Source: a phage. Taken from it: a stretch of DNA of 64,000 nt. The stretch lies in assembly GCA_014161675.1 (NCBI GenBank), contig GCA_014161675.1_4760.1. One strand, written 5' to 3'. The notes below the pieces were generated by a model. That model had not been told where the DNA came from. It was given only the letters and a program-made list of their open reading frames with translations, and did no database searches. This document shows, piece by piece, positions 1 through 63,924 of the stretch. Positions within the stretch are counted from its first letter, which is position 1. The number at the start of each line of letters is the position of its first letter. The position numbers and the translations under genes are program-made.

Positions 1-237
1 ACCGGATTGAGTTTCAAACACTTTAAGATGGCATAGAGAGCCTAAAAACTTTTCACCCTCTTCTGGTATAAACGGAACATAGACACGAGAATATAAGATA
101 GTGCTATGCAGTTTATCACGAGGAACGGCATTAGGCAGATCGTAGAACTCCTGCAATTTTTCAATGCGGTCTAGTGTATCCTCAGTGAATTTAACCGCCG
201 CATATGTACCTTTAACGGATTCTCTAAACGGGGTCAT
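1..237 (-). CDS. Partial CDS (N-terminal part; gene continues beyond window start): 2H-phosphoesterase-like protein in the position of T4 57B
   Basis: Open frame runs off the left edge; ATG at 235-237 preceded by GGAGG; N-terminus contains an HSTIL (H-x-T/S) motif typical of LigT/2H phosphoesterases. Confidence 0.45.
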   Translation of the reverse strand, partial: MTPFRESVKGTYAAVKFTEDTLDRIEKLQEFYDLPNAVPRDKLHSTILYSRVYVPFIPEEGEKFLGSLCHLKVFETQSG

Positions 238-1786: not shown

Positions 1787-1863
1787 TACTGATTCCTCAA
1801 ATGAAAATATTTATTAACAATTGTCGCTTTGCGACGTGCCGTAGGCACTGACTACTTTTTAAC

Positions 1864-1905
1864 CGAAACAAATTTTTATTATTCTAAAGATCTTTCTTCG
1901 TTTTG
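1864..1905. repeat. Intergenic repeat copy A (between gene 3 and ORF 1976)
   Basis: CGAAACAAATTTTTATTATTCTAAAGATCTTTCTTCGTTTTG; contains the palindrome AAAGATCTTT. Confidence 0.6.
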
Positions 1906-1975
1906 GTTATGTTTTAACCAATAACTATATTTTTATACAGTAATAAATAAAACGGGTACTATACGAGGACTTCTT

Positions 1976-2259: not shown

Positions 2260-3081
2260 TTATGCATCCTTCCAAACTTTCCTTGCGTCGTATTTCTTGC
2301 CTTTTGACATAAACTGATATGTAGGCATATAGATAATATTGCTCCAGTCTTTCGGGCTAATCTCAACAAGTTTTGTTTTAATGTGTCCCGGTAGATATGC
2401 TTTGATCATGTGATCACTTCCACGCATACCTTTTACATCGCTCCATTTGATTTTTAAGCGTGTTTTATTGCTCAATGTAGGAGTAGATGCATATTGCTTT
2501 AAAAGTGCTTCCAGAAACTGCTGACGGGCTTTAGGCGTTACATAGTGTAAGTTAAGACCCAACATTACAGTATTACCCGCCTTTGTCTTAGAATCACCCA
2601 GACAAATGATCAGCGGGAAAACATCCCAATATGGCAAAGTGTCTTTATACTTCGCATCATACATAAATGTATAGATTCGCCCTACTTGCGGTTTTACAAT
2701 CTGGTGTCCCTTTATTCCCGCTTTTATTGTTTTAGTAAACCACTCCTGTGATTTTTCTTTAGGACGACTCTTTGATACAGCACGCATAGACGCACGAAAA
2801 TCATTAATCATCATCATTGCGCGTTGCTGCTTATTGAGACCCTTTGCACTTTTCCCTTTTAGTTTTTCAACTTCTATTGCTGTTTTAATTTCGCTGGCAT
2901 AACGAGACATACTTTTAGTGAAAGTCGCATAGGCTATTCCCTTAGAATCTGCAAATGCTTTAGCTGTCATTCCTTTGGCTTTTGCTTTCGCAAATTCTAC
3001 ACCCAATTCGACCCACTGTTTAGACTTTCGTTTTTGGGGAGACGGCTTTTCGTCTTCGGTGATTATTTCAAATACGCTCAT
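2260..3081 (-). CDS. 2: DNA end protector protein (gp2)
   Basis: 273 aa, same size and position as T4 gp2 (3-2-4 order); basic N-terminal region. Confidence 0.8.
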   Translation of the reverse strand: MSVFEIITEDEKPSPQKRKSKQWVELGVEFAKAKAKGMTAKAFADSKGIAYATFTKSMSRYASEIKTAIEVEKLKGKSAKGLNKQQRAMMMINDFRASMRAVSKSRPKEKSQEWFTKTIKAGIKGHQIVKPQVGRIYTFMYDAKYKDTLPYWDVFPLIICLGDSKTKAGNTVMLGLNLHYVTPKARQQFLEALLKQYASTPTLSNKTRLKIKWSDVKGMRGSDHMIKAYLPGHIKTKLVEISPKDWSNIIYMPTYQFMSKGKKYDARKVWKDA

Positions 3082-3092
3082 AATATTATCCT

Positions 3093-3566
3093 CTATTTGT
3101 TAAGCCCTTTAAAGCCAAACACTTTCTTTAATGCATGTTCGGTTATGATCTTAAACTCCATGTTATGCTTTTGGCATAATTTCACGGCAGCTAACCATTT
3201 TTCAGTATTTTTTGTGTACGTCCATACTTCATGCATATATCGTTGCTTTGTCTTCGCGGTCATTCTTTTTGGCTTTTCCGGTGGCCTTGTCTCTTTAGCT
3301 GGTTTAACTTCCCATAAATGCTCCTTGCCATCATCAAACTTAACGTAAAAATCCATAAAGTATCTGTGTCTTTTCCCGTCTGTTGATGACTCATAAGGAA
3401 TTACTACGGTCTCAGATCCCCATTTTGCAACTCTAGGATTGCGGTCTAGCCACTGCATGATCCATCTTTCCCAGCTTGAACGGTATGTGATCTTACGTAT
3501 ATCCCCTTTATACTTTTCCTTATTCTCAGGAACATACTTGCCCTTATAAGTGTTAGATCCTCCCAT
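3093..3566 (-). CDS. 4: Head completion protein (gp4)
   Basis: 157 aa ORF between gene 2 and divergently transcribed gene 53 as in T4. Confidence 0.8.
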   Translation of the reverse strand: MGGSNTYKGKYVPENKEKYKGDIRKITYRSSWERWIMQWLDRNPRVAKWGSETVVIPYESSTDGKRHRYFMDFYVKFDDGKEHLWEVKPAKETRPPEKPKRMTAKTKQRYMHEVWTYTKNTEKWLAAVKLCQKHNMEFKIITEHALKKVFGFKGLNK

Positions 3567-3621: not shown

Positions 3622-4176
3622 ATGCTCTTTTCTTTCTTCCCTGCCATTGAATACAACGGCAAGATGATTACTGACATTGTGCGCAATTACCGCGCATATT
3701 TCAACGCAATAATTTCCGATTATAACATACAAACATATTACATTCAAGGTAGTCCACGACCGGAACAAGTTGCATATGAAGTATACGGAAACCAACAACT
3801 TTATTGGATCTTGCTGATGCTTAATGACGTATACGATCCGTTCCATGACTGGATCACCGATCAAGAGACAGCATATGAATCAGCCGAACAACGATATGCA
3901 AACGTAGGAGGAAATCAAGTATTATACCACGTTGATATTGACGGAAACAAGTATTGGAATCTTACCGAATATCCGAAAGGATCAAGCAATTGGTATGATA
4001 AAGGGGATATTCATCATCGTCATTTGCAGTTTCAAGGTGCACTATCGGCAGTAGACACACTGGAAGATGCGATCCTCCGCAATGAGGAACGACGCAAGAT
4101 CAAGATCATAGATCCTACACAAATTAAACAATTTATTAACGCATTCATTCGAGAAATGGAAAAGGCTGATGTGTAA
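3622..4176 (+). CDS. 53: Baseplate wedge protein gp53
   Basis: Strong similarity to T4 gp53 (MLF(S/T)FF..IEY..., YYI(Q/K)GSPRPE, QLYW(I/V)LLM.ND.YDP motifs). Confidence 0.9.
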   Translation: MLFSFFPAIEYNGKMITDIVRNYRAYFNAIISDYNIQTYYIQGSPRPEQVAYEVYGNQQLYWILLMLNDVYDPFHDWITDQETAYESAEQRYANVGGNQVLYHVDIDGNKYWNLTEYPKGSSNWYDKGDIHHRHLQFQGALSAVDTLEDAILRNEERRKIKIIDPTQIKQFINAFIREMEKADV

Positions 4177-4187
4177 GGTGATTAATT

Positions 4188-5987
4188 ATGCTAATGTTTA
4201 ATAACTCCGTTAAATGGTTTACCGGAATTGTAGAAAACAGGGAAGACCCATTAATGCTGGGGCGTGTTCAGGTTAGGATTCATGGTATACATCCCTCGCT
4301 ATCCGCGCACGGTGACATTCAAGGTCTTCCAACCGAAGATCTATTATGGATTACGCCAGTACAAGATATTACAAGCGCGGCGATCTCCGGTATCGGTCAA
4401 AGCCCTACTGGTATTGTTGAAGGTTCAATGGTATTTGGTTTGGCTTTAGATGAACGTTATTTAAACTGCGTTATTCTTGGTACTATTGCCGGACAATATA
4501 CAGAGAAACCACTCACTACAGAGGGTTTTTGTGACCCTTCTGGTGCATATCCTCGTTATATTGGTAATGATGTTAATATTCTTGCTCGTGGCGGTATTAA
4601 CCCAGAAACCGGACAAACAACAAAACCTGATAGTGTCTATATTCGAGATGAAAACACTGGAGTTGCAGTAAATCCAGACGACGAGCCATTAGACCAAATT
4701 CCGGTTGATGATAATCCTGATTTTACAATAGAAAAAATGCTGCGGGGCGATGAGGGATATCGCGAGAAATGGTATCTTGATTCAGAAGGATATCCGACAA
4801 TAGGCATCGGGCATTTGATCATTTATAAGAAAACCAGTGATCTTGGTATTATCAATAATGAACTTTCTAAGCTGGTAGGGCGTGAAGTTACAAACGGAAG
4901 ACTTACCGCCGAAGAAGTTAGTAAAGTATTTGCTGACGATATAGAAAAGACTCGTCGTGATATGCGCAAACATCCACGAATTGCACCTGTCTATAATAAA
5001 TGTAATGCCTCACGTCGTATGGCATTAGAAAATATGGCGTTTCAAATGGGTGTTGGTGGATTGGGTAAATTTAAGAATAGTCTTGCTGCGATGTTAGCGG
5101 AAGAATGGAAACAAGCCTATGATGGATTACGTCAATCGGTATGGGCTAACCAAACTCCAGGACGCTCCAGCCGTGTTTCTAAAATTATTTTAACTGGTAA
5201 CTTAGAATCATATGGCGTAATTGCTCCAAAGAAAGAGGAATCAATTTCTGATGATCCGCGAGCACGTTTAAGAAATGCCCGTATTGCGGCCTATAAGACG
5301 CAGAGAGCAGAAGAAGACCCAGAAGCACCGTTTACCCCACAAGACACACGAATCATGTTTAAAGAGCCTAAGAGTTCGTATTCTGCAAGGTATCCTTATA
5401 ACCATGTGTACGAGTCAGAGAGCGGTCATATTATCGAGATTGATGATACTCCTTCTCATGAGCGATATCATCGTAAACATCCTTCTGGTACATTTGAAGA
5501 AACCAGACCGGACGGAACGAGGGTAGAAAAGATTGAAGGCGATGATTATCTGATCGTTAAACAAGGCCGGAAAGTAAACGTTAAGGGTAATTTGCAAGTT
5601 GTTGTTGAAGGTGACGCGCAAGTTTATTATATGGGTAATGTGATGCAAACCGTTGATGGTAACGTCACGGAATTTATTCGTGGTAATGTTAATCAGACCG
5701 TTGAGGGTACAGCTAATATGCATGTTGTAGGTGATGTTACCGCTCAGCTTGACGCTAATTTAACGGCTAACGTCAAGGGTAATGCTGAATTAATGATCGA
5801 GGGTAACACTACCGAAACAATTAAAGGTAACTATGATTTAACCGTTGAGGGTAATTTTAATATGACCGTCAATGGCACGAAATCAGATCAGGTTAATGGT
5901 GACTGGTCCCGTAATTGTGGTGCAAGCGTTAAAGATATTGCATCTGGTACAGTTAAAATTGATGGTAGCCGTATTGATCTTGGGTGA
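4188..5987 (+). CDS. 5: Baseplate hub / cell-puncturing spike with lysozyme domain (gp5)
   Basis: Internal T4-lysozyme-like segment (EGYPTIGIGHLI) and C-terminal VxGxxxxx octapeptide beta-helix repeats. Confidence 0.9.
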   Translation: MLMFNNSVKWFTGIVENREDPLMLGRVQVRIHGIHPSLSAHGDIQGLPTEDLLWITPVQDITSAAISGIGQSPTGIVEGSMVFGLALDERYLNCVILGTIAGQYTEKPLTTEGFCDPSGAYPRYIGNDVNILARGGINPETGQTTKPDSVYIRDENTGVAVNPDDEPLDQIPVDDNPDFTIEKMLRGDEGYREKWYLDSEGYPTIGIGHLIIYKKTSDLGIINNELSKLVGREVTNGRLTAEEVSKVFADDIEKTRRDMRKHPRIAPVYNKCNASRRMALENMAFQMGVGGLGKFKNSLAAMLAEEWKQAYDGLRQSVWANQTPGRSSRVSKIILTGNLESYGVIAPKKEESISDDPRARLRNARIAAYKTQRAEEDPEAPFTPQDTRIMFKEPKSSYSARYPYNHVYESESGHIIEIDDTPSHERYHRKHPSGTFEETRPDGTRVEKIEGDDYLIVKQGRKVNVKGNLQVVVEGDAQVYYMGNVMQTVDGNVTEFIRGNVNQTVEGTANMHVVGDVTAQLDANLTANVKGNAELMIEGNTTETIKGNYDLTVEGNFNMTVNGTKSDQVNGDWSRNCGASVKDIASGTVKIDGSRIDLG

Positions 5988-8756: not shown

Positions 8757-11700
8757 TTAAAGCGCCTAGTGTAACTAGCTTGACAATAGAAAAATTGTCT
8801 GCTAATCAGGCGTATATCACATGGGATGACGTAGGCGAAAACTTCTTTTATTTTGTGGAGTTAGCCGAAACCAGAACACGAGACGGGGAGATCATCCCCG
8901 TCGATGAGTTAAGCTGGGTAAACCTGGGATATACTGCCGACCAAAACTGGTTTGAGGATAAAAACCTTTTTCCAGAATATTATTACAAGTTTCGTGTAGC
9001 AGTAGCCGCAGAAGGATTTGAACAAAGTAAATGGGTTGAAACAGAAGAGTTTCAGACATTTAAAACAAACGCATATAATTTTTCTATGATGCGAGAGTTC
9101 AACCTTGCAAACGAGTTTATAAAGGAAAAATTTACATACGATAATCGAGAGTATGTCAAGTTTAATACTGACCTGATTCAAGCATCATTAATGAAGGAAG
9201 ATTTTGTCTTTAGTCCTGAATATGCAAACATGACAAATATCTCAAACTACATTGTAGTGGATGAGAACTTTCATGAAATACAGGATCACATAGAAAAAGT
9301 TTGTACTGATATAAACCGCACTATGTTAGCGGAAATGAACGGTGTTTTGTACCTTTTCGAACGGTTCCAGCCGATCGTGAAAGTGTCAAATGATAAAGGC
9401 CAATCATGGAAAGCATACAAGGCTTTTAATGACCGTGTAGGCAATCCGGTTTCCCGTACATGCGTTTATCAGTCTAAAACCACTACTTACGTTTTAGGAT
9501 ATGACCGAATCTTTTACGGACGACAAGCGAGCGATACTCGATGGAGCGCGGACGATGTTCGATTTAGTGATGATACGATCACTTTTGCAAAGGTCGGTGA
9601 CGAAAACGATTTAGGCTTTGACGTTGAGGTCTTTGGTGTATTTTCCAGATTAACAGGTGATACCACAAAATACGCCGAAGCTATGGCGTGTAGTGATGAC
9701 TATTTGTGGGTTGGTGCTAAAGATGTTATTCGCAGGATTCGTCTTAAGAATACTCCTGTTGATACCGTACAGGGTTCGCCTACGTTTGGAGAAAAAATAT
9801 TCGATCCTGATGTTATCCGAGTAACAGGAAATGATAAAGCTGTCATTCAGAAAATGGATGTGATCGACGGTAAATTGCTTGTATTTGTTACGGGTGAAGT
9901 TAAACAGCGTTATCAAGATCCAACTAAACCAGAAAACGTTGTTCCGTCAGATGATGCGGGTGTATACTTAATAGGGAGTGATGGTCTGTCTTTTCAGAGA
10001 GTATTTGGCAACACTCCGCAGGAAAGGGAATATATTCAGCATGGGTTCAGTAATATGTCAACCAATGGTGATGAGGTGTTCATAAGCCATTATAATCATC
10101 ACTTCGAAAGCATTTTACCTGATCCAGAAACTGCCGAGAAATATGAATTGGGCGAAGCTGTAAAATATTCTCAGGAGCCAACTTATCTAACTGATAAGAA
10201 AATACATCAAACTACTTTCAGAGCAAGTTATGATGATTTGCGTATTTGGGAGTTAGGACCGCAAGCGTATTATAACGAGGCTGATTATACATGGATGCGT
10301 CGAAACGGTGTCCGTGTGTGGATCACAAATGATAATCGCCCGTTGGTTGTTTATCCAGAGGTTATCTATACTCAAGAAGTTGATACGTCTGGCATTCTTG
10401 ACCAAAATAGGGTCAACCGAGAAGTTTATGATAAAGGGACCGTGACCTGTTATCTTAACAATGTTAAATTTGAAGGATTCAAACAATATGCATCCGGTGT
10501 AATGTTCCATAAAAACACAGGAGAGATCATAGGATTCTATCAATTTAATTATCGTGTTCGTGATCAGGTTGGTGTATATTGGAAACCTACAAATGTAGCA
10601 TTTGTTGCTGAATTGCAAAATCAGGTTCGAGAGGTTCCCTGGGTTCCGGTTCACTACGATCGAGAGCAAGATCCAGATTTGCGGCCTTTACTGAATAAGA
10701 TGACCCCTGATAGCTTTTTACTTGAGAACGAAAATTTCAGAAAATTCTCTGAATATTATCTGCAATTCTTAAGCGATGGTTCAGGAACATATTATAATAA
10801 ACTAAAAAATCTGATTAAAAACAAATATCCACGCGAGAAAGATGCATATGAGTATCTTTGGTCAGAGATGAACAAACGAAACATCTATGCAGATAAAAAC
10901 AAGCGAGATGCGGTAGTAAGATTCTTTGAATCCCGCAAATCAGATTTTTATTCCACTAAGGGCGTGGAGGCTTCTTATAAGTTCTTGTTTAAGTTACTTT
11001 ATAATGAAGATGTGGAAATTGAGGTTGAATCACAAGCCGGACTAGAGTATGATATTGTTGTTAGTTCAACGAACATTGACGAGGATATCGTAGGTCGCAC
11101 GATTTATACTCCAACCGGACGGGCTAACGTGACGTATCTTGAAAGGGAATATGAAGGTGGTCGCCTACGCTGGCGAGTAACCATTCATAACCTGATCGGG
11201 CGGTTCGAAGAAGGTCAAGTGATCAAATCAGAGAAAACAGCGTTTGAAGGGATGATCCTTGTTGGTGTACGTGGTAAAGAGTTGTTGAGTAGTTCAATCG
11301 ACTATATCAACCGCTCACGAAGCCAATACACCATGAAGATTAAAAGTGCATTGCCAGTTTCGCGCTATGCAAATGATGTAATGCGATTCGTTCATCCTGT
11401 CGGCTTTGGGTTTATCGGTGTTACCCTGCTTACAATGTTCATTAACAGCGGGTTAAGCATGAAGCACACCGAGACTATAATTCAATCTCTGAAAAATTAT
11501 AAGTTTGACAGCGGATTGCCTAGCGTGTATCCTGATCGGGTGGCAGACCTTGACGTTGACGGAAACATTAAGAAAGACCCGCTTACCGGAAAAGCATTAT
11601 ATTTGACTTCACCTTTAATTGGTGAAGAATTTCCGGTTCCTCCTGAATATGATCAGGAGAACAGCGAATTGTTCCACGGACTTAAAGCAAGCGAACGAAG

Positions 11701-52721: not shown

Positions 52722-54773
52722 TTACATTTTAAATTTATCTGGCATTGCGTCTACAGATACCAGATCAGCGATAAGCTGACGTAGAGTTGCCTTATCTGCT
52801 TTCTTACGTTCGGTTTTAGCTTCGCTAATGAAGCTGGAGAAAGACAGGTCAGAAGCAGGTTTAATAACACCTTCACGGATGAATGCATCACCGTCCGCGA
52901 TCATCTCGCCAGATTCTTGTAATGCTGCCAGTTCATTTTTGTTCATAATATGTGCCTCAATGTAATAAGTTTCTTGTGAATCCGTCGATGCCGTAGCACG
53001 AGTTACCGTATCAAAGGATAACACAACACCGCGAGGAAGTAAAATCTCGCATTCTTTGTAAGCAAATGCTTTGTTACCTACTGGCAATACAGGGATGTTT
53101 TCCGCGCCAGCAATGGAGAAAGCAACATTAGCGCCACCTTCACCGCGAGAGCCAGCCATAGAGTCAACACCAGCAACGGCACTAGCCACGTTTGCATTCC
53201 AGCCGCCAAAAATGTTAGGTGCAAGGGAAGTGCTCACATAGTTTTTAAAGTAAAACGCTTTTTGCTTACGTGCAGTTTCCCACATTTGCGACCGGAAGTC
53301 CATACCACGATACAGAATAGTACCCGGATCAAGTTTAACGCCATAGTTGGAGAAGGCATTATCCAGTGCATCGCACATCTTGACCAATTCTTCTGGATCT
53401 GCGATGCCTTCAAACTCTTCCAGCTTACGGTCGGTTAGGAAGTTGTTCATATTGATGTATGCTGCATCGGCATATTCGCTCAACACAAAACCTTCCGCGC
53501 CTGGCAGATCAAGATCAATATCTGCCATCATTTCACCCATGTTGCTAGCAATTGCTTCAAACATACCGGAGGCAACATTACGTAGGGCATCGGTTTTAAT
53601 CTGGGTGATATGACTACGCAGCATTTCAGCTTTTACATCTGCTGGCATAGACTGGTCTACTCGATCCATTGCCAGGGCGGTGATCTTGTTTTCGAATACT
53701 TCCTCGCTCATGATTTCTTTTAAGCGTTTGACCGAGGCTGCGATAACTTCCGCAGACAATGGATCATATTGATCCTGAACTTTTACCAGTTCGCTTACTG
53801 CGTATTTTGCATCGGCTTCGCTTTCAAAAATAGTACGCATGAAACCATAGCGAGTGATAATATCACTTGTCCAGTCATTCAGAGAACGAGCGGTTGAACG
53901 TTCTAAGGCTTGACGGTCAATCAGAGTATTAAACTGTTTCTTAGGTTCTGCTTCGGTGATATCTTCTTCCGGTTTAAGATTAATTTTTTCTGGATGATTC
54001 ACATAGTCGCTGTTATAGGTCGCTTGAGTTTTCAGCATTTCTTCTTTAGTCAAACGAGATTTAGCCGCTACGCGTTGTTCTGCTTCCGCGTTTCGTTCTT
54101 CTTCTGACACAAGACTAGCCGCATATGCCTCATCTTTAGTCAGAGATTCACCAGTAGCCTTAGATACCCAGCGATCACCTAAATCACTTTCTACTTTAGT
54201 GAACAAGGATTCATCAAGTTTAATCCCTTTAATCTTATCAATCGCCATCCCGCGACGCTTGACAACAACTAAAGCGATCTTTTTGCTGGTCATTACTTCC
54301 TGCTGGAATACTTCAAACTTCGGTGTACGACGCACCAAACGCTCTATAACGCGCTTAACCAGTTCGGTCTTACCTTTCATGCGGGATACGTTAAAACGGA
54401 ACATAACAGCGTCTAATTGCGCTTTACGGGCTGTTTCCATAACCACATCAAAAGCACTTGACATAACTGCAATCGGGTTATCGCCTAGACCATTTTTAAG
54501 CTGTACAATACGACCGCTTTTGTTCATTTCGCACAGTACAACATGTGCGGTCTTGTCACCCATACGAATGATTTTAGGTGTTTTGTTGGTGAAGTTACAA
54601 AGACGGACAATCACATCTTTATCGCGTGTCTGTACTGCAAAAAGCTGTTTAGGATTCTGCTTAGGCTTTAAGCACTGTACCGGAGCAATCCTGCCAAAGT
54701 TTTCTTCCTCTTCCGTCAACAGCCATTTCTCGAAAGATTCAATCATTAGATCGTCGATTTCTAAGTTAAACAT
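52722..54773 (-). CDS. alt: ADP-ribosyltransferase Alt (packaged RNAP-modifying enzyme)
   Basis: 683 aa (T4 Alt 682 aa); catalytic LYRGMDF, YVSTSLAP, ECEILLPRG motifs; position next to gene 54. Confidence 0.8.
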   Translation of the reverse strand: MFNLEIDDLMIESFEKWLLTEEEENFGRIAPVQCLKPKQNPKQLFAVQTRDKDVIVRLCNFTNKTPKIIRMGDKTAHVVLCEMNKSGRIVQLKNGLGDNPIAVMSSAFDVVMETARKAQLDAVMFRFNVSRMKGKTELVKRVIERLVRRTPKFEVFQQEVMTSKKIALVVVKRRGMAIDKIKGIKLDESLFTKVESDLGDRWVSKATGESLTKDEAYAASLVSEEERNAEAEQRVAAKSRLTKEEMLKTQATYNSDYVNHPEKINLKPEEDITEAEPKKQFNTLIDRQALERSTARSLNDWTSDIITRYGFMRTIFESEADAKYAVSELVKVQDQYDPLSAEVIAASVKRLKEIMSEEVFENKITALAMDRVDQSMPADVKAEMLRSHITQIKTDALRNVASGMFEAIASNMGEMMADIDLDLPGAEGFVLSEYADAAYINMNNFLTDRKLEEFEGIADPEELVKMCDALDNAFSNYGVKLDPGTILYRGMDFRSQMWETARKQKAFYFKNYVSTSLAPNIFGGWNANVASAVAGVDSMAGSRGEGGANVAFSIAGAENIPVLPVGNKAFAYKECEILLPRGVVLSFDTVTRATASTDSQETYYIEAHIMNKNELAALQESGEMIADGDAFIREGVIKPASDLSFSSFISEAKTERKKADKATLRQLIADLVSVDAMPDKFKM

Positions 54774-55307: not shown

Positions 55308-55339
55308 GTTTGATTCTCCTTTCGTTTCGGTATGTGTGT

Positions 55340-55368
55340 AGTATAGGGGATCACCGATCCCCTGTCAA
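55340..55368 (-). promoter_or_regulatory. Sigma70-type promoter cassette with palindromic spacer (minus strand)
   Basis: Minus-strand TTGACA-GGGGATCGGTGATCCCC-TATACT. Confidence 0.65.
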
Positions 55369-55376
55369 CAACTTTT

Positions 55377-55895
55377 TTAGTTATTTTTTAATTGCTCATC
55401 TTGCAATAGGGCAATCACATGCTGGCGATGTTCTTCCGATTGAGGCACACCGAAAAAGTTTGTTTTGTAGAAATACTCTAATCGGTCTTCTCGTGTGCTC
55501 TCTTCCATCATGATCGCGGGTAGTCCGAGATTTCGGAAACGTCGCTTTTCTGCTGGCGTAAAATCACTGTAATACAACATAGAATCATCATTACCAGCAA
55601 TGCTAAACTCATCCTTCATAAAGGAGAATATTGCGTTTAAACGCTGTTTACCGTCCACGATTTCGATCTCATAGCGAGAGCCATCATCAATCTTAGCCAT
55701 TGCGATAGCACCAACCGGAAAATCATTAATCAGGTTTTCGATAAACATACGTTTGTTTTCTGTGTCCCATACTAAAGGACGCTGATAATCTGGGTTCATG
55801 TTGATATAGCCATCTTCTAACCACGCCTCATAAACAGAGATTACAAAGTTTTTAGTATTGGTATAGTAACGGCGTTTAGGTGTTAAACGGTTCAT
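55377..55895 (-). CDS. DUF262/ParB-like (GmrSD N-terminal-type) domain protein
   Basis: DYQRPLVWD ... FPVGAIAM ... DGKQRL match the DUF262 signatures ((D/E)YQR..VW and DGQQR); start placed at MNRLTPKRR (RBS AGGAGA) rather than ORF-track start 55931. Confidence 0.55.
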   Translation of the reverse strand: MNRLTPKRRYYTNTKNFVISVYEAWLEDGYINMNPDYQRPLVWDTENKRMFIENLINDFPVGAIAMAKIDDGSRYEIEIVDGKQRLNAIFSFMKDEFSIAGNDDSMLYYSDFTPAEKRRFRNLGLPAIMMEESTREDRLEYFYKTNFFGVPQSEEHRQHVIALLQDEQLKNN

Positions 55896-55896
55896 G

Positions 55897-56229
55897 TTAT
55901 AGTCTCCTGAATGGATCATCACGTAAATCAATATCTTTTAAGAACTCATCCCATGAATGGCGGATATTGTTCTTAATTCTCCAGATAAGAGCAGGGATTG
56001 AACGCTCTCCCATCTGGAAGTATGGATCATATGATCCGTATGCCCAATATGCTACTACAATTCCACAATCAGCGCAATAGTATTCTATTTCACTTGCTGG
56101 CGACCAAAGTCCATCAATATGATCGGTGATCTTGCTTTCGATGTTATGGCTATGACAATCAGGGCAACGGATGCAATGACCTTGTTTATCGTAATTTGAC
56201 GTTAGCGAATACTTAAACAATCTCATCAT
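55897..56229 (-). CDS. Zinc-ribbon protein
   Basis: 110 aa with CIRCPDC ... CADC (two CxxC pairs); start overlaps upstream gene stop. Confidence 0.5.
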   Translation of the reverse strand: MMRLFKYSLTSNYDKQGHCIRCPDCHSHNIESKITDHIDGLWSPASEIEYYCADCGIVVAYWAYGSYDPYFQMGERSIPALIWRIKNNIRHSWDEFLKDIDLRDDPFRRL

Positions 56230-56942
56230 AGATCCTTATTTGCTTCAAATACTGCCTTTGCGAATCCTCGCGGGGTAAGTGACCTGATAGTCTTTGTTTT
56301 CGTTCCTTTCCCGCCTAGCTTAGAATGCTGTTTACTGTACCCTTTATTAATCTGCAACGGTTTCTTTTCTGGCATTATAAAGCCTTGTCCGGTCCATAAG
56401 CAAGTCTTTTTCGGGTACATATCACGGGCGGCGATATACTCAGGAAAAGTAGGATGTTTATCATCTTCCGGCAAATAACCGCCATATTCCCACGGGTGGA
56501 ACATGTAATCAGGCTTACGCCACATGCTAGAGATAACGCTTACAGGATTCTCTATCATGTAGGGAACTCCTAGCCATTCACCCAAATAAGCGGTTATTTT
56601 AGCTGCCCTTACATCATGAACTTGAATCAATGGTCCTTGTTCTCGTTTCTTTCGTTCAAAGTGTGCAGCGCCACTAACAGCTAAATTGGTGCACGGTGGG
56701 AATGCAAAGATAATATCCGGTTTCCCCCATTCAAGGTCCATTGCTCTTTCCAGCCAATTCAAATCAATCCAGGTGTTTACATAGGTAATGTTTGGATGTT
56801 CAAATCTGGTATTATACTTTTTGTATGTGCCGTGGTCGCCATCATCAGCATTAAAGCAGATCACCTTATGACCTGCTTTAGCCCATTCTAGCCCCATTAT
56901 CCCCGATCCGTCAAAGTTACAGAATATTAATTTTTGTTTCAT
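56226..56942 (-). CDS. Compact C5-cytosine methyltransferase-like protein
   Basis: Motif I-like FCNFDGSGIMG, motif IV-like FPPC(T), motif VI-like MIENP, C-terminal RSLTPRGFAKA resembling motif IX; only 238 aa with almost no target-recognition region. Confidence 0.5.
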   Translation of the reverse strand: MKQKLIFCNFDGSGIMGLEWAKAGHKVICFNADDGDHGTYKKYNTRFEHPNITYVNTWIDLNWLERAMDLEWGKPDIIFAFPPCTNLAVSGAAHFERKKREQGPLIQVHDVRAAKITAYLGEWLGVPYMIENPVSVISSMWRKPDYMFHPWEYGGYLPEDDKHPTFPEYIAARDMYPKKTCLWTGQGFIMPEKKPLQINKGYSKQHSKLGGKGTKTKTIRSLTPRGFAKAVFEANKDL

Positions 56943-57184
56943 ATACGCCCCTTTAATCCAACACAGATTTTAGAAGGTTCTTTGCCGTGCCACATTAAGT
57001 AAAGTCCGTTAATGCGGCCTTGTTTTGTATATGATTCTTTTCTGATCTTCTTATAGTGTCGTGTTTCCTCAACTGATTGTTTAGAATACCAATCATAAAG
57101 GAAGAGGCACAAAGGCCAACCATTAGCGGCCTTAATGCAGTTATTAAGAAATTCCTTATTGCGTTTAATTAATTTTCTTTTCAC
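56939..57184 (-). CDS. Hypothetical small basic protein
   Basis: 81 aa, start/stop overlap with neighbours (operon). Confidence 0.45.
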   Translation of the reverse strand: MKRKLIKRNKEFLNNCIKAANGWPLCLFLYDWYSKQSVEETRHYKKIRKESYTKQGRINGLYLMWHGKEPSKICVGLKGRI

Positions 57185-57432
57185 GCTGCCCCCATTGGTT
57201 TGATAGTAACAGAATCTAAAAGACCTTTGTTAGCCAGTTCGCGGCAAGTTTTCAGATCCGCAACTTCCCAGCCAGCCGCAATCAGGTTATCAATCAGGCT
57301 GTTAGCAACTTCTTCGCTCATGAAAGAGCACTGTTTGCCGATGGTGTAGCGTACACGCTGTAATTTCAGTTTACGGAAGCCTTTAACGTTCAGGTCTTTA
57401 GCGATTTTCTTTGCGGTTTCGATGTTAGCCAT
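57181..57432 (-). CDS. Hypothetical small protein (first gene of 5-gene operon)
   Basis: 83 aa, promoter cassette immediately upstream. Confidence 0.5.
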   Translation of the reverse strand: MANIETAKKIAKDLNVKGFRKLKLQRVRYTIGKQCSFMSEEVANSLIDNLIAAGWEVADLKTCRELANKGLLDSVTIKPMGAA

Positions 57433-57472: not shown

Positions 57473-57501
57473 ATTGTAGGGGAGTTATCCTCCCCTGTCA
57501 A
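57473..57501 (-). promoter_or_regulatory. Sigma70-type promoter cassette with palindromic spacer (minus strand)
   Basis: Minus-strand TTGACA-GGGGAGGATAACTCCCC-TACAAT then AGGAGAATCAAACAATG. Confidence 0.6.
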
Positions 57502-57515
57502 CACTTTTTATAAAA

Positions 57516-57683
57516 TTATTTGTTAATTTCTGGTGCGTTGCTAGGATAGTAACCTTCTTTAACTCCGAGGTATTTCGCAACCATCCCTACAATCTTCTGT
57601 GCTACTACAATGTCAAATTTCAGATAATCTTCGCCGTGGGTTTCAATGATATATGCTTCACATGCTGCTTTAGTCTCGAACAT
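57516..57683 (-). CDS. Hypothetical small protein (55 aa), paralog of 60774..60941
   Basis: MFETKAACEAYIIETHGEDYLKFDIVVAQKIVGMVAKYLGVKEGYYPSNAPEINK; ~85% DNA identity to the second copy. Confidence 0.5.
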   Translation of the reverse strand: MFETKAACEAYIIETHGEDYLKFDIVVAQKIVGMVAKYLGVKEGYYPSNAPEINK

Positions 57684-61952: not shown

Positions 61953-62429
61953 TTATTTTTCTTGATGCTCGCGATCGTACTTTTCGAAATAAAATTCTAC
62001 TGGCTGGTCGTGGATTGACAGCAAGCCAAAGCGTTTAGCCGCTCGCAATCCCATATTGCGCTGAATGTACTTCTGGAAGTTCTCGCGTATACACTTACGC
62101 CAGGATTCTAAGCCCATGCAGCTTTTATAAAGATTGCATTGCACACACGCCGGATTCATGTTATCAAGTATATCATGCTCCGGTTTATGCATTCCTACAA
62201 CCTTATACTTCCACGATCCATCATCATTACGGGCAATTCGTCCATTTTCATCATAGACTACCTTTGAGCGTCGCAATACTGGTTTGATGTGGTCTGCGTG
62301 CCAGCGATCCCCTAGTTCCTCGCCACAATAGGCACAACGTCCACCATATTTCATTTTCAGGATCTGGCGTTGATCTTTCTTTGACAATTTTTTAGGTTTA
62401 GGGGCTTTCGCCCCTTCATTATCACACAT
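61953..62429 (-). CDS. HNH endonuclease (free-standing, putative homing endonuclease)
   Basis: CAYCGEEL...WHADHIKPV...NMNPACVQCNLYK (Cys pairs flanking H-x-D-H and Asn); start overlaps the ligase stop. Confidence 0.7.
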   Translation of the reverse strand: MCDNEGAKAPKPKKLSKKDQRQILKMKYGGRCAYCGEELGDRWHADHIKPVLRRSKVVYDENGRIARNDDGSWKYKVVGMHKPEHDILDNMNPACVQCNLYKSCMGLESWRKCIRENFQKYIQRNMGLRAAKRFGLLSIHDQPVEFYFEKYDREHQEK

Positions 62430-63924
62430 CGAATACCTCTTTTACTGTATTTGCAGTGGTCTTGTCGTAGCGAATACGTTTGATGATTGGGAGAAATAAA
62501 GAGAACTCCGGTTCATCTTCTTTACGTGATTTGCTGCGGATATACCCGTTGCATGTCATCTCAATGACTTTGCCAACCAGGTTATGACGGTCAGCCCATA
62601 ACATTTCTCGGTCGAGTTCATTTCGACGAACGAACGGAATTACACGTTCAGTACCATCATCACCTTTTTCGGTTGTAGTGTCGGTTAATCCCGATCCGGT
62701 GTTAGTCATCATTCGTCCGCACGCACTACGGACAGTAAAACCGCCTACCTTATTGGGGTCTTTACTATGCGGATATACGTCAACAATTTCCGCGTCGAAG
62801 TCAATCACTTCTTTAAATTTAACCTGATCTTTACTACGGCGATCTTCAAATACACCATGTAAATTTTTAAGGATAATACCTTCTAAGCCCATGTTGACAT
62901 AACGATGATATACTTCGCGAGCTTCATCGATATTGTTAACTACAGTATTTTCGATTATCTGAACACGAGGATCGTTAAGTTCTTCAACAATCTGTTTTAG
63001 TTCTTCGAATCGATCTTTATATTGCTTCGTTGCTTTCTCGTTTCCATAATACACATCACGGTCGATAACATCCCAGACAGTGTAAACAATACATTGGGCT
63101 TCTTCTTTTGGAATAGTTCCTTTAAGTGATTTGTTGAGGATACCATTTCCGGTCTGACGATCTGCAACAACGGATTCTTTCACTGCTTCCGCTACTGGCG
63201 TTAATGGCATTTCCTCTTCTTCAAATATCCATGACAGAGTACCATCATAAACGCTCTCAACGAAGTTCTGCGCTGGTGTTTGCGAAAGGGTAGGCATATA
63301 TACCAATTCGCCATCTAGAACAATTCCACGGCCTCGTAGACGCTCTAAAACCGCAAACAAATCATCAAGCCCTTGATAGGTATTACCTGAGCGGGTATAG
63401 ATTGCTAATGTTTCCCCGTCAATATCAGCCATACCACGAGCGCCATCGCTTTTAAGTTGTGCATACGCCGGATACTTGATATTAGCAATAGTCTTATCAG
63501 AACATGACGATGCAAGGTGGCACGGCTGCTGGGGGATCAGTTTCTTCCATACCTTGTTTGCAGTGGTAGCTGAACAGCCGCATTCCAGATCACGATTCAG
63601 GACCATCATTGCAACTTTAGCATCATCCTCTGACAAGCAAGTCAGAGTATCGGTAACTAGCTGTAATGCTGCATTACCAGTTACTTGACGCGTGGCAAGT
63701 TTATTTTTAAAGACCTGTAATGCACCGGATAAAGATAATACAGACGAATAGCGAGATGGTTTATCGTATTTCTTTACGCCAAACGTAACCTGTTTGCAAT
63801 ATGCCAGATAAAAGCATTCTTTCAGCGTTTCATTGCTCGCGGATTCTTTCAGAATCTTTTCTTTCAGCGATGTTTTGTCTGTTGCTGCAAGCTGATTAAT
63901 GATATTAAGAATTGACATTTTCAC
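62422..63924 (-). CDS. 30: ATP-dependent DNA ligase (gp30)
   Basis: Adenylation motif KSDGAR (T4 KADGAR); further identical blocks with T4 ligase (LVYH/M, GIANKSLKGTI..EAQC, GLEGIILKN, KFKEVIDVD). Confidence 0.9.
   Translation of the reverse strand: MKMSILNIINQLAATDKTSLKEKILKESASNETLKECFYLAYCKQVTFGVKKYDKPSRYSSVLSLSGALQVFKNKLATRQVTGNAALQLVTDTLTCLSEDDAKVAMMVLNRDLECGCSATTANKVWKKLIPQQPCHLASSCSDKTIANIKYPAYAQLKSDGARGMADIDGETLAIYTRSGNTYQGLDDLFAVLERLRGRGIVLDGELVYMPTLSQTPAQNFVESVYDGTLSWIFEEEEMPLTPVAEAVKESVVADRQTGNGILNKSLKGTIPKEEAQCIVYTVWDVIDRDVYYGNEKATKQYKDRFEELKQIVEELNDPRVQIIENTVVNNIDEAREVYHRYVNMGLEGIILKNLHGVFEDRRSKDQVKFKEVIDFDAEIVDVYPHSKDPNKVGGFTVRSACGRMMTNTGSGLTDTTTEKGDDGTERVIPFVRRNELDREMLWADRHNLVGKVIEMTCNGYIRSKSRKEDEPEFSLFLPIIKRIRYDKTTANTVKEVFDV

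Follow-up and report, generated by a model that had tools for sequence, protein, structure and literature searches.

A probable PeSL-bounded early unit of independent accessory genes in an RB49-like Krischvirus, with a compact Dcm-like methyltransferase and a mini-DUF262 protein

Described relatives and the five-gene unit

The closest characterised relative of a gene in the locus described here is a methyltransferase of phage K42. The locus itself is a block of five minus-strand genes (genes 1 to 5) at positions 55,377 to 57,432 of a 64,000-nucleotide stretch of phage DNA (GenBank assembly GCA_014161675.1, contig GCA_014161675.1_4760.1), hereafter the window. K42 is 95.4% identical to KarlJaspers (Bas06). 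Its escape mutants of retron Ec86 all have mutations in, or just upstream of, a 711-bp gene for a “Dcm-like C5 cytosine methyltransferase” (bioRxiv 10.1101/2023.08.16.553469). In the same work, K42 Dcm expressed alone placed 5-methylcytosine (5mC) on the multicopy single-stranded DNA (msDNA) of retron Ec86, as detected by liquid chromatography-mass spectrometry, and the retron defence required a CCTGG site in the msDNA. An AlphaFold model of K42 Dcm was aligned there to DNMT3A, and C82, E128, K175 and K176 were mutated, the two lysines only within a quadruple mutant.

The second group of relatives carries DUF262 domains. In GmrSD/BrxU type IV enzymes the domain is N-terminal, and a DUF1524/HNH nuclease follows it in one protein or is encoded by a paired gene. 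In Menshen (NsnABC), SspE and DndB-type sensors it precedes a ParBDB domain, and genes for a partner ATPase or effector accompany it. Its three defined motifs are QRxxxW, DGxQR and NxxG (PMC12065111). As for the borders of the block, the promoter-early stem-loop (PeSL) elements of RB49 and phi1 are described as early promoters and terminators, and also as sites of recombination by which gene cassettes are shuffled (PMC2839356, PMC4122927). Arbiol et al. 2010 mapped a mini-circle crossover at the RB49 ORF190/191 junction (PMC2839356).

Compared with these systems, the block is likely to be one PeSL-bounded early transcription unit of an RB49-like Krischvirus, made of shuffled, independent accessory genes that include an orphan Dcm-like C5-methyltransferase (gene 3) and a separate mini-DUF262 protein (gene 5). 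Read from the sequence, genes 1 to 5 share one transcript and are coupled in translation. Comparative genomics shows, over the loci compared, that they are independently distributed accessory genes strung together in this lineage, and not a conserved multi-protein system. PeSL-mediated shuffling would have assembled these unrelated genes into one early unit.

The first-pass annotation had proposed a coupled DNA-modification or anti-defence module, and comparison of the genes across phages does not support this. On the methyltransferase side, 80 viral loci were taken from the methyltransferase alignment, 79 of them outside Krischvirus, and were searched with tblastn within 4 kb. The 83-amino-acid (aa), 81-aa, zinc-ribbon and DUF262 genes are found near the methyltransferase at none of these 79 loci (0/79). 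Genes that do recur beside the methyltransferase there are Dam-like methylases, genes of the nin region and unrelated small open reading frames (ORFs). On the DUF262 side, another 80 loci came from the DUF262 alignment (78 non-Krischvirus) and were searched with tblastn and a hidden Markov model (HMM) of the methyltransferase family. Again, the methyltransferase, the zinc ribbon and the 81-aa or 83-aa gene are near the mini-DUF262 gene at 0/78 loci. The phage ranges of the genes are disjoint. This lack of co-occurrence on both sides, the disjoint ranges, the unrelated neighbours in RB43 and KP27 and the loss of gene 2 from one Krischvirus contig argue that the genes are independent and do not form a conserved multi-gene system.

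In RB43 and KP27, genes of 112 aa and 107 aa lie upstream of the DUF262 orthologs; as zinc-ribbon homologs they were rejected (E 0.39 and 8). The 304-aa gene downstream of the KP27 ortholog has no Pfam domain, so no hidden nuclease partner was seen there.

One could still see the methyltransferase, the zinc ribbon and the DUF262 protein as a single DNA-modification or anti-defence machine, for example with the DUF262 NTPase or the zinc ribbon supplying target recognition. Co-transcription, the ATGA and TAA-C-ATG junctions and the very small recognition region of the methyltransferase would fit such a machine, as would the sensing of modified DNA by DUF262 domains in GmrSD and SspE (PMC12065111). 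The gene order is also kept in 56/64 Krischvirus records, but this has little weight because the operon block is 95-99% identical across 59 such records. Given that order argument, the missing partners outside Krischvirus, the unrelated neighbours of the DUF262 ortholog, and K42 Dcm, which methylates msDNA by itself (bioRxiv 10.1101/2023.08.16.553469), we judge the single machine to be very improbable. Some caution is due in the other direction. An order kept in almost all Krischviruses could reflect function instead of recent common ancestry, and the tblastn threshold of E 1e-3 could overlook very divergent small partners. With independence as the preferred reading, the lesson of this case is that tight operon packing in the variable regions of T4-like phages does not imply functional coupling.

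The compact methyltransferase and its probable CCWGG target

By its predicted fold and its motifs, gene 3 is a member of the C5-cytosine methyltransferase superfamily. The AlphaFold model (predicted local distance difference test, pLDDT, 90.9) has a class I methyltransferase fold with the C5-methyltransferase arrangement, and the top 25 Foldseek matches are all DNMT3A/B (E about 1e-7). Residue conservation was read from an alignment of 45 homologs at 56-64% identity. Invariant in all of them are F10, G12, S13 and G14 of motif I, which binds S-adenosylmethionine (SAM), P82-P83-C84-T85 of motif IV with Cys84 at the catalytic cysteine position, E131-N132-P133 of motif VI, and R220-S221-L222/R225-G226 (RSLxxRG). 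The alignment shows no QxRxR for motif VIII, for which K178 and T180 (KKT), invariant and on the equivalent strand, may be substitutes. Motifs IX and X appear merged.

The family-level scores give a mixed picture. Pfam DNA_methylase (PF00145) matches only the N-terminal third of gene 3, with E 0.027 and 14.4 bits, below the cut-off of 22; the PADLOC model MTase_II gives E 7e-4, and phrog_757, “DNA methyltransferase”, matches over the full length. Within the family, 7/45 members match PF00145 at E <=0.01 (best 1.3e-6), and none of the 45 matches a different Pfam family. The suggestion of a C5-methyltransferase-like protein with almost no target-recognition domain agrees, at the superfamily level, with the fold and the invariant motifs, and the recognition region is as minimal as had been guessed. 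From the combined HMM and structure check put forward with it, the structural similarity stood (Foldseek, DNMT3A/B) and the Pfam match did not, since 14.4 bits fall short of 22. No match was found among the sequences of chains in the Protein Data Bank, searched with the gene 3 protein and with the family profile, and no NCBIfam model matches the protein. Aligned by hhalign to the canonical methylase of RB43, the family profile aligned at motif IV only, without significance (probability 2%), a single-sequence template being too weak for such a comparison.

The family itself is large. Its homologs, of about 230 aa in a length class of about 225-260 aa, form more than 7300 clusters, and the family is present in 1582/50,697 phage records (about 3%). 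Its range covers Drexlerviridae, Dhillonvirus, Webervirus, Vequintavirinae and phi92-like, 9NA-like, T5-like and lambdoid phages. A protein identical to the 238-aa product has the database entry “putative methyltransferase [Shigella phage Sf20]”. The enzyme is not new, because Dcm or DNA methyltransferase is a common annotation for the family, which has a characterised member at 55% identity.

Many database records start gene 3 at Met16 (223 aa), which cuts off the SAM-binding motif I (F10-G14). The 238-aa start is favoured by the ATGA overlap and by the conservation of residues 1-15.

The characterised member is the K42/KarlJaspers enzyme. The KarlJaspers dcm gene (MZ501090, 40087..40797) encodes 236 aa, and gene 3 is 55% identical to its product over the full length (E 1e-91). 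The residues mutated in K42, C82/E128/K175/K176, align with C84/E131/K178/K179 of gene 3. Both enzymes are compact (236 and 238 aa), have a DNMT3A-like predicted fold and are orphan phage genes. They differ in phage family, Drexlerviridae against Straboviridae, and in genomic context. By this homology, gene 3 is a member of a family with demonstrated 5mC activity on DNA and an apparent CCWGG target. For the Krischvirus enzyme itself, we infer CCWGG specificity and retron Ec86 triggering from this analogy.

Other methyltransferases are more distant. DNMT3A and DNMT3B catalytic domains have 13-17% identity to gene 3, a kinship at the superfamily level only. Unlike the gene 3 protein, DNMT3 is about 280 aa long, forms an oligomer with DNMT3L and reads CpG. 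With E. coli Dcm and the M.EcoRII-type enzymes (PF00145), gene 3 shares motifs I, IV and VI in canonical order and probably the chemistry and the CCWGG target. It is about half their size, has no evident QxRxR motif VIII and is not an ortholog of the host Dcm.

In the mechanism we propose, gene 3 would form 5-methylcytosine with SAM as the cofactor, Cys84 serving as nucleophile and Glu131 handling the proton. Its probable target, from the K42/KarlJaspers homolog, would be CCWGG in the phage DNA. Methylation of these sites would guard against EcoRII-type restriction, with or without host Dcm.

The window has few CCWGG sites. There are 24, against 54 +/- 6.8 expected from dinucleotide shuffles and 79.7 from a maximal-order Markov model (observed/expected 0.30, z -6.2). 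Among the 48 short palindromes scored, none is more depleted than CCWGG; AGCT and GGCC follow. One site is inside the methyltransferase gene (56769..56773). Deamination decay was rejected as the cause of the depletion, since its products CTTGG/CCAAG are not enriched (7 vs 30 expected), and for this reason restriction avoidance is more likely. On this view the phage would have answered one EcoRII-type pressure twice, by avoiding CCWGG and by encoding its own CCWGG methylase.

Several observations on related phages and on the protein itself speak against a CCWGG enzyme of the K42 kind. First, Krischvirus has GYSKQHSKLGGK and K42 has DNPGWAKTGGK in the short variable loop that precedes the invariant LGGK, so the target specificity of gene 3 may differ from that of K42 Dcm. 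Then, TB34 DNA has no detectable modified nucleosides by high-performance liquid chromatography/mass spectrometry (PMC13390438), and RB49 DNA is cut by HpaII and NheI (PMC4041780). Neither result probes CCWGG; both fit a rare CCWGG mark, without demonstrating 5mC. Finally, RB49 has been propagated on E. coli B (PMC4041780), and BL21(DE3), an E. coli B derivative, natively carries the retron Ec86 that is triggered by K42 Dcm (bioRxiv 10.1101/2023.08.16.553469). Growth on this host is at odds with Ec86 triggering if both enzymes are alike. Either the Krischvirus enzyme has a different specificity or the phage evades retron Ec86.

Phage SAP adds a further comparison. Glucosyl-hydroxymethylcytosine DNA has been reported for it, with no known pathway (PMC13390438), and it is 99.96% identical to TB34. 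The five-gene operon has 0/2113 differing bases between the two phages. An operon that is identical in modified SAP and unmodified TB34 cannot explain their difference in modification. In SAP, a 79-bp tandem duplication of the PeSL cassette is found just downstream of the DUF262 gene (SAP-locus 1808..1957, equivalent to about 55310..55376 of the window), and a 1-base indel further upstream. This 3-kb region was rejected as the source of the SAP modification, the operon being identical and the difference there being the duplicated PeSL cassette.

The same comparison bears on whether gene 3 is a plain DNA 5mC methyltransferase at all. It could act on RNA (Dnmt2-like), use another cofactor (CmoX-like carboxymethylation) or take part in a cryptic cytosine hypermodification such as the glucosyl-hydroxymethylcytosine of SAP. 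We hold this to be quite unlikely: K42 Dcm, a family member at 55% identity, forms 5mC on DNA, the operon does not differ between TB34 and SAP, and no CmoA, CmoY or glycosyltransferase partner is found within the block.

A Dcm-like function for gene 3 matters beyond the window. It gives a concrete, testable role, an orphan Dcm-like methyltransferase that probably guards CCWGG, to a gene present in every Krischvirus. Krischviruses are usually described as phages with unmodified DNA and are used as unmodified controls. The assignment also predicts that Krischviruses may be sensed by retron Ec86-type systems.

The stand-alone DUF262 protein

As scored and modelled, gene 5 is a genuine DUF262/GmrSD_N domain with a ParB/Srx fold, in line with what had been suggested for the last protein of the block. 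It has 73.2 bits against Pfam GmrSD_N (PF03235), where the cut-off is 33.2. The AlphaFold2 model has a pLDDT of 94.4, and its Foldseek matches include ParB, Noc, PadC, BrxU, Srx (sulfiredoxin), KorB, Osa and SspE. The motifs QRxxxW, DGKQR and NxxG are intact, with Q39, R40, W44, D82-G83-K84-Q85-R86, N147 and G150 invariant in 35 homologs. The best match in the defence library (PADLOC) is Menshen NsnA (E 1e-20), followed by PD-T4-2_A, and the NsnA match spans only positions 47-188 of the 385 in the model. No NCBIfam model matches the protein.

Gene 5 shares with GmrSD/BrxU, SspE, DndB and Menshen NsnA a PF03235 match above cut-off, the QRxxxW, DGxQR and third motifs, and the ParB/Srx fold. Unlike them, it is nothing more than this domain. 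DUF262 fills the whole 172-aa protein, which has neither the DUF1524/HNH nuclease of the type IV enzymes nor the helical ParBDB DNA-binding domain of the sensors. No nuclease or ATPase gene is adjacent: downstream are a PeSL cassette and a 59-aa gene, and upstream is the zinc ribbon. Domain and defence-library scans found no ABC ATPase or effector within the block. With none of these features in or next to it, gene 5 is not a GmrSD, SspE or Menshen system.

An exhaustive HMMER search with gene 5 gave 6165 representatives at E <=1e-3, of which 448 reached E <=1e-10. Of the best 150, nearly all are no longer than 300 aa, which argues that gene 5 belongs to a real clade of stand-alone mini-DUF262 proteins and is not a truncation. 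A decaying, functionless remnant of a full-length GmrSD-type gene would explain why only the N-terminal 183 of the 417 phrog_1583 positions are matched, and why the gene ends right at a PeSL cassette, a known recombination site. Such a remnant is, in our view, extremely improbable, because equally short homologs at 28-56% identity keep Q39, R40, W44, D82-R86, N147 and G150, the domain model is compact and confident, and orthologs persist over several T4-like genera.

These orthologs, at 35-38% identity, are found in RB43/RB16/Lw1, in KP15/KP27-like phages, in Karamvirus and in related T4-like phages (RB43 locus 3971..4507; KP27 locus 3980..4507). Among the matches listed there is none from the hydroxymethylcytosine T-evens. 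The RB43-like, KP15/KP27-like and Karamvirus-type phages are presumably phages with cytosine DNA, without the T4 hydroxymethylcytosine pathway. Krischvirus is reported to lack this pathway. Some Klebsiella phage records label the gene 5 ortholog 'DefenseFinder protein'.

As for function, our best guess is a nucleoside triphosphate (NTP)-dependent binder or decoy in phage-host or phage-phage conflict. The nuclease-less NTP-binding domain of gene 5 would act apart from gene 3. A more specific proposal, again independent of the methyltransferase, is an anti-defence decoy or dominant-negative subunit, which would pair with host ParB-DUF262 sensors (GmrSD/BrxU, Menshen NsnA, Dazbog, PD-T4-2, SspE/DndB) or compete for their ligand and thereby block them. 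The intact NTP-binding motifs in a protein with neither nuclease nor DNA-binding domain are consistent with it, as are the place in an early operon, the large clade of short stand-alone proteins, the NsnA match and the ParB_n-only partner genes of host GmrS/GmrSD doublets (PMC12373910). On the other hand, unmodified TB34 is already immune to BrxU (PMC13390438), so an anti-GmrSD role is not obviously needed, and literature searches turned up no characterised stand-alone DUF262 protein encoded by a phage. On balance the decoy is rather unlikely.

A wider version would make the mini-DUF262 proteins a class of phage counter-defence or inter-phage competition factors. They would be nuclease-less ParB/DUF262 NTP switches of cytosine-DNA T4-like phages (Krischvirus, RB43-like, KP15/KP27-like, Karamvirus), which either poison the DUF262 sensors of the host (GmrSD/BrxU, Menshen, Dazbog, SspE) or, in co-infections, tag the modified DNA of hydroxymethylcytosine phages. 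This is speculative, and we would call it distinctly unlikely. A still bolder version would have the mini-DUF262 protein read the 5mC made by the neighbouring Dcm-like enzyme, and comparative support for it is none. Whatever its role, the novelty that remains in the block is this conserved nuclease-less mini-DUF262 protein of cytosine-DNA T4-like phages; the methyltransferase is of a known kind with a characterised relative.

Gene layout, PeSL cassettes and small genes

The operon is in a variable region rich in small early genes, between alt (52722..54773) and the DNA ligase gene gp30 (62422..63924). The surrounding 3-kb region is 97.6-98.7% identical to RB49, Phi1, GEC-3S, TB34, SAP and about 55 other Krischvirus genomes. 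Features are collected in Table 1.

Table 1. Features of the five-gene block and its flanks, with window coordinates
Feature	Coordinates	Strand	Evidence
Upstream PeSL cassette	57473..57501	-	TTGACA-17-TACAAT, 11/12 promoter positions; full form TTGACA-GGGGAGGATAACTCCCC-TACAAT (57501..57473); GEC-3S promoter annotation at same place
Gene 1, 83 aa, RB49p190 homolog	57181..57432	-	phrog_14908, E 5e-59
Gene 2, 81 aa, GTG start, RB49p189.1 homolog	56939..57184	-	phrog_7065, E 5e-38
Gene 3, 238 aa, RB49p189 homolog, putative compact DNMT3-like, Dcm-like C5-cytosine DNA methyltransferase	56226..56942	-	phrog_757, E 2e-90
Gene 4, 110 aa, RB49p188 homolog, putative zinc ribbon CxxCxxC ... CxxC	55897..56229	-	phrog_2993, E 5e-34
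Gene 5, 172 aa, RB49p187 homolog, stand-alone minimal ParB/DUF262 domain	55377..55895	-	PF03235, E 4e-20
Downstream PeSL cassette	55340..55368	-	TTGACA-17-TATACT, 11/12 promoter positions; full form TTGACA-GGGGATCGGTGATCCCC-TATACT (55368..55340); GEC-3S promoter annotation

The five packed minus-strand ORFs listed by the first-pass annotation are all where it placed them. Every motif it quoted is also found: FCNFDGSGIMG, FPPC, MIENP, RSLTPRGFAKA, DYQRPLVWD and DGKQRL. Its length of 173 aa for the last protein has to be corrected to 172 aa. The start is the ATG at 55895, the codon at 55898-55896 is AAC and no start, and GEC-3S and RB49 annotate the same start. The junctions, read from the sequence, are GTGA overlaps between genes 1 and 2, ATGA overlaps between genes 2 and 3 and between genes 3 and 4, and TAA-C-ATG between genes 4 and 5. 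This pattern is a classic arrangement for translational coupling. The ORFs are real genes and not chance, given the PHROG matches (E 5e-34 to 2e-90), the conservation in 59 Krischvirus records and the homologs at 28-64% identity in other phages.

Both flanking cassettes had been noticed before, with none inside the block, and both are real. They have the PeSL architecture, with a -35 TTGACA, a G+C stem-loop in the spacer, a -10 hexamer, a Shine-Dalgarno sequence and an ATG. With a strict pattern, the cassette turns up 5 times in the window and never in 100 shuffles. Inside the operon there is no 11/12 cassette, and the best match is 10/12, at chance level (56914..56885). Promoter-like matches in general show no excess over the scanned stretch (13 vs 10.1 in shuffles). 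The cassettes agree with the PeSL of RB49 and phi1 in genus and architecture, with no difference of substance, and the upstream one corresponds to the ORF190/191 junction.

The upstream cassette is an early promoter of the sigma-70 type that drives the five-gene unit, and the downstream one serves the next gene (59 aa) as promoter. The stem-loop of the latter probably ends the five-gene transcript. Transcription of genes 1-5 would thus run from the upstream PeSL promoter to the downstream PeSL stem-loop.

Genes 1, 2 and 4 are small accessory proteins. In a tblastn search, gene 1 is found in 57 phage records, all Krischvirus. PADLOC gives it a weak match (E 2.6e-5) with RT_UG35, the model of the UG35 defence-associated reverse transcriptase; residues 722-785, in the C-terminal part of the model, are matched. 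Homologs of gene 2, with 34-38% identity, are carried by Dhakavirus, T5-like and Karamvirus phages. Gene 4 matches the Pfam TFIIB zinc ribbon with E 5.6e-4, below the cut-off, and its homologs are in JenP1-like siphoviruses and FelixO1-like phages.

Gene 2 is cleanly lost in the Krischvirus metagenomic contig L086 (2730..3673), and by this absence it appears dispensable. There, the stop of the 83-aa gene overlaps the GTG start of the methyltransferase. Gene 2 and the methyltransferase both begin with MK-x-KLI, a likeness that may have guided the deletion. Gene 1 of L086 has a different N-terminus and different genes upstream.

Further variation is seen around the cassettes. RB49 has ORF192, the PeSL mini-circle cassette of Arbiol et al., at RB49-locus 2959..3435, between the homologs of window positions 57683 and 57760; the window is without ORF192, as is phi1. 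Several other Krischviruses have 430-600-bp insertions within the 3-kb stretch. Lastly, the 55-aa gene directly upstream of the operon (57516..57683) has a second copy, about 90% identical, some 3.3 kb further upstream, near 60.8 kb, which was seen at 8796..8960 of locus L001 and at 2..166 of locus L004. Both copies adjoin PeSL cassettes.

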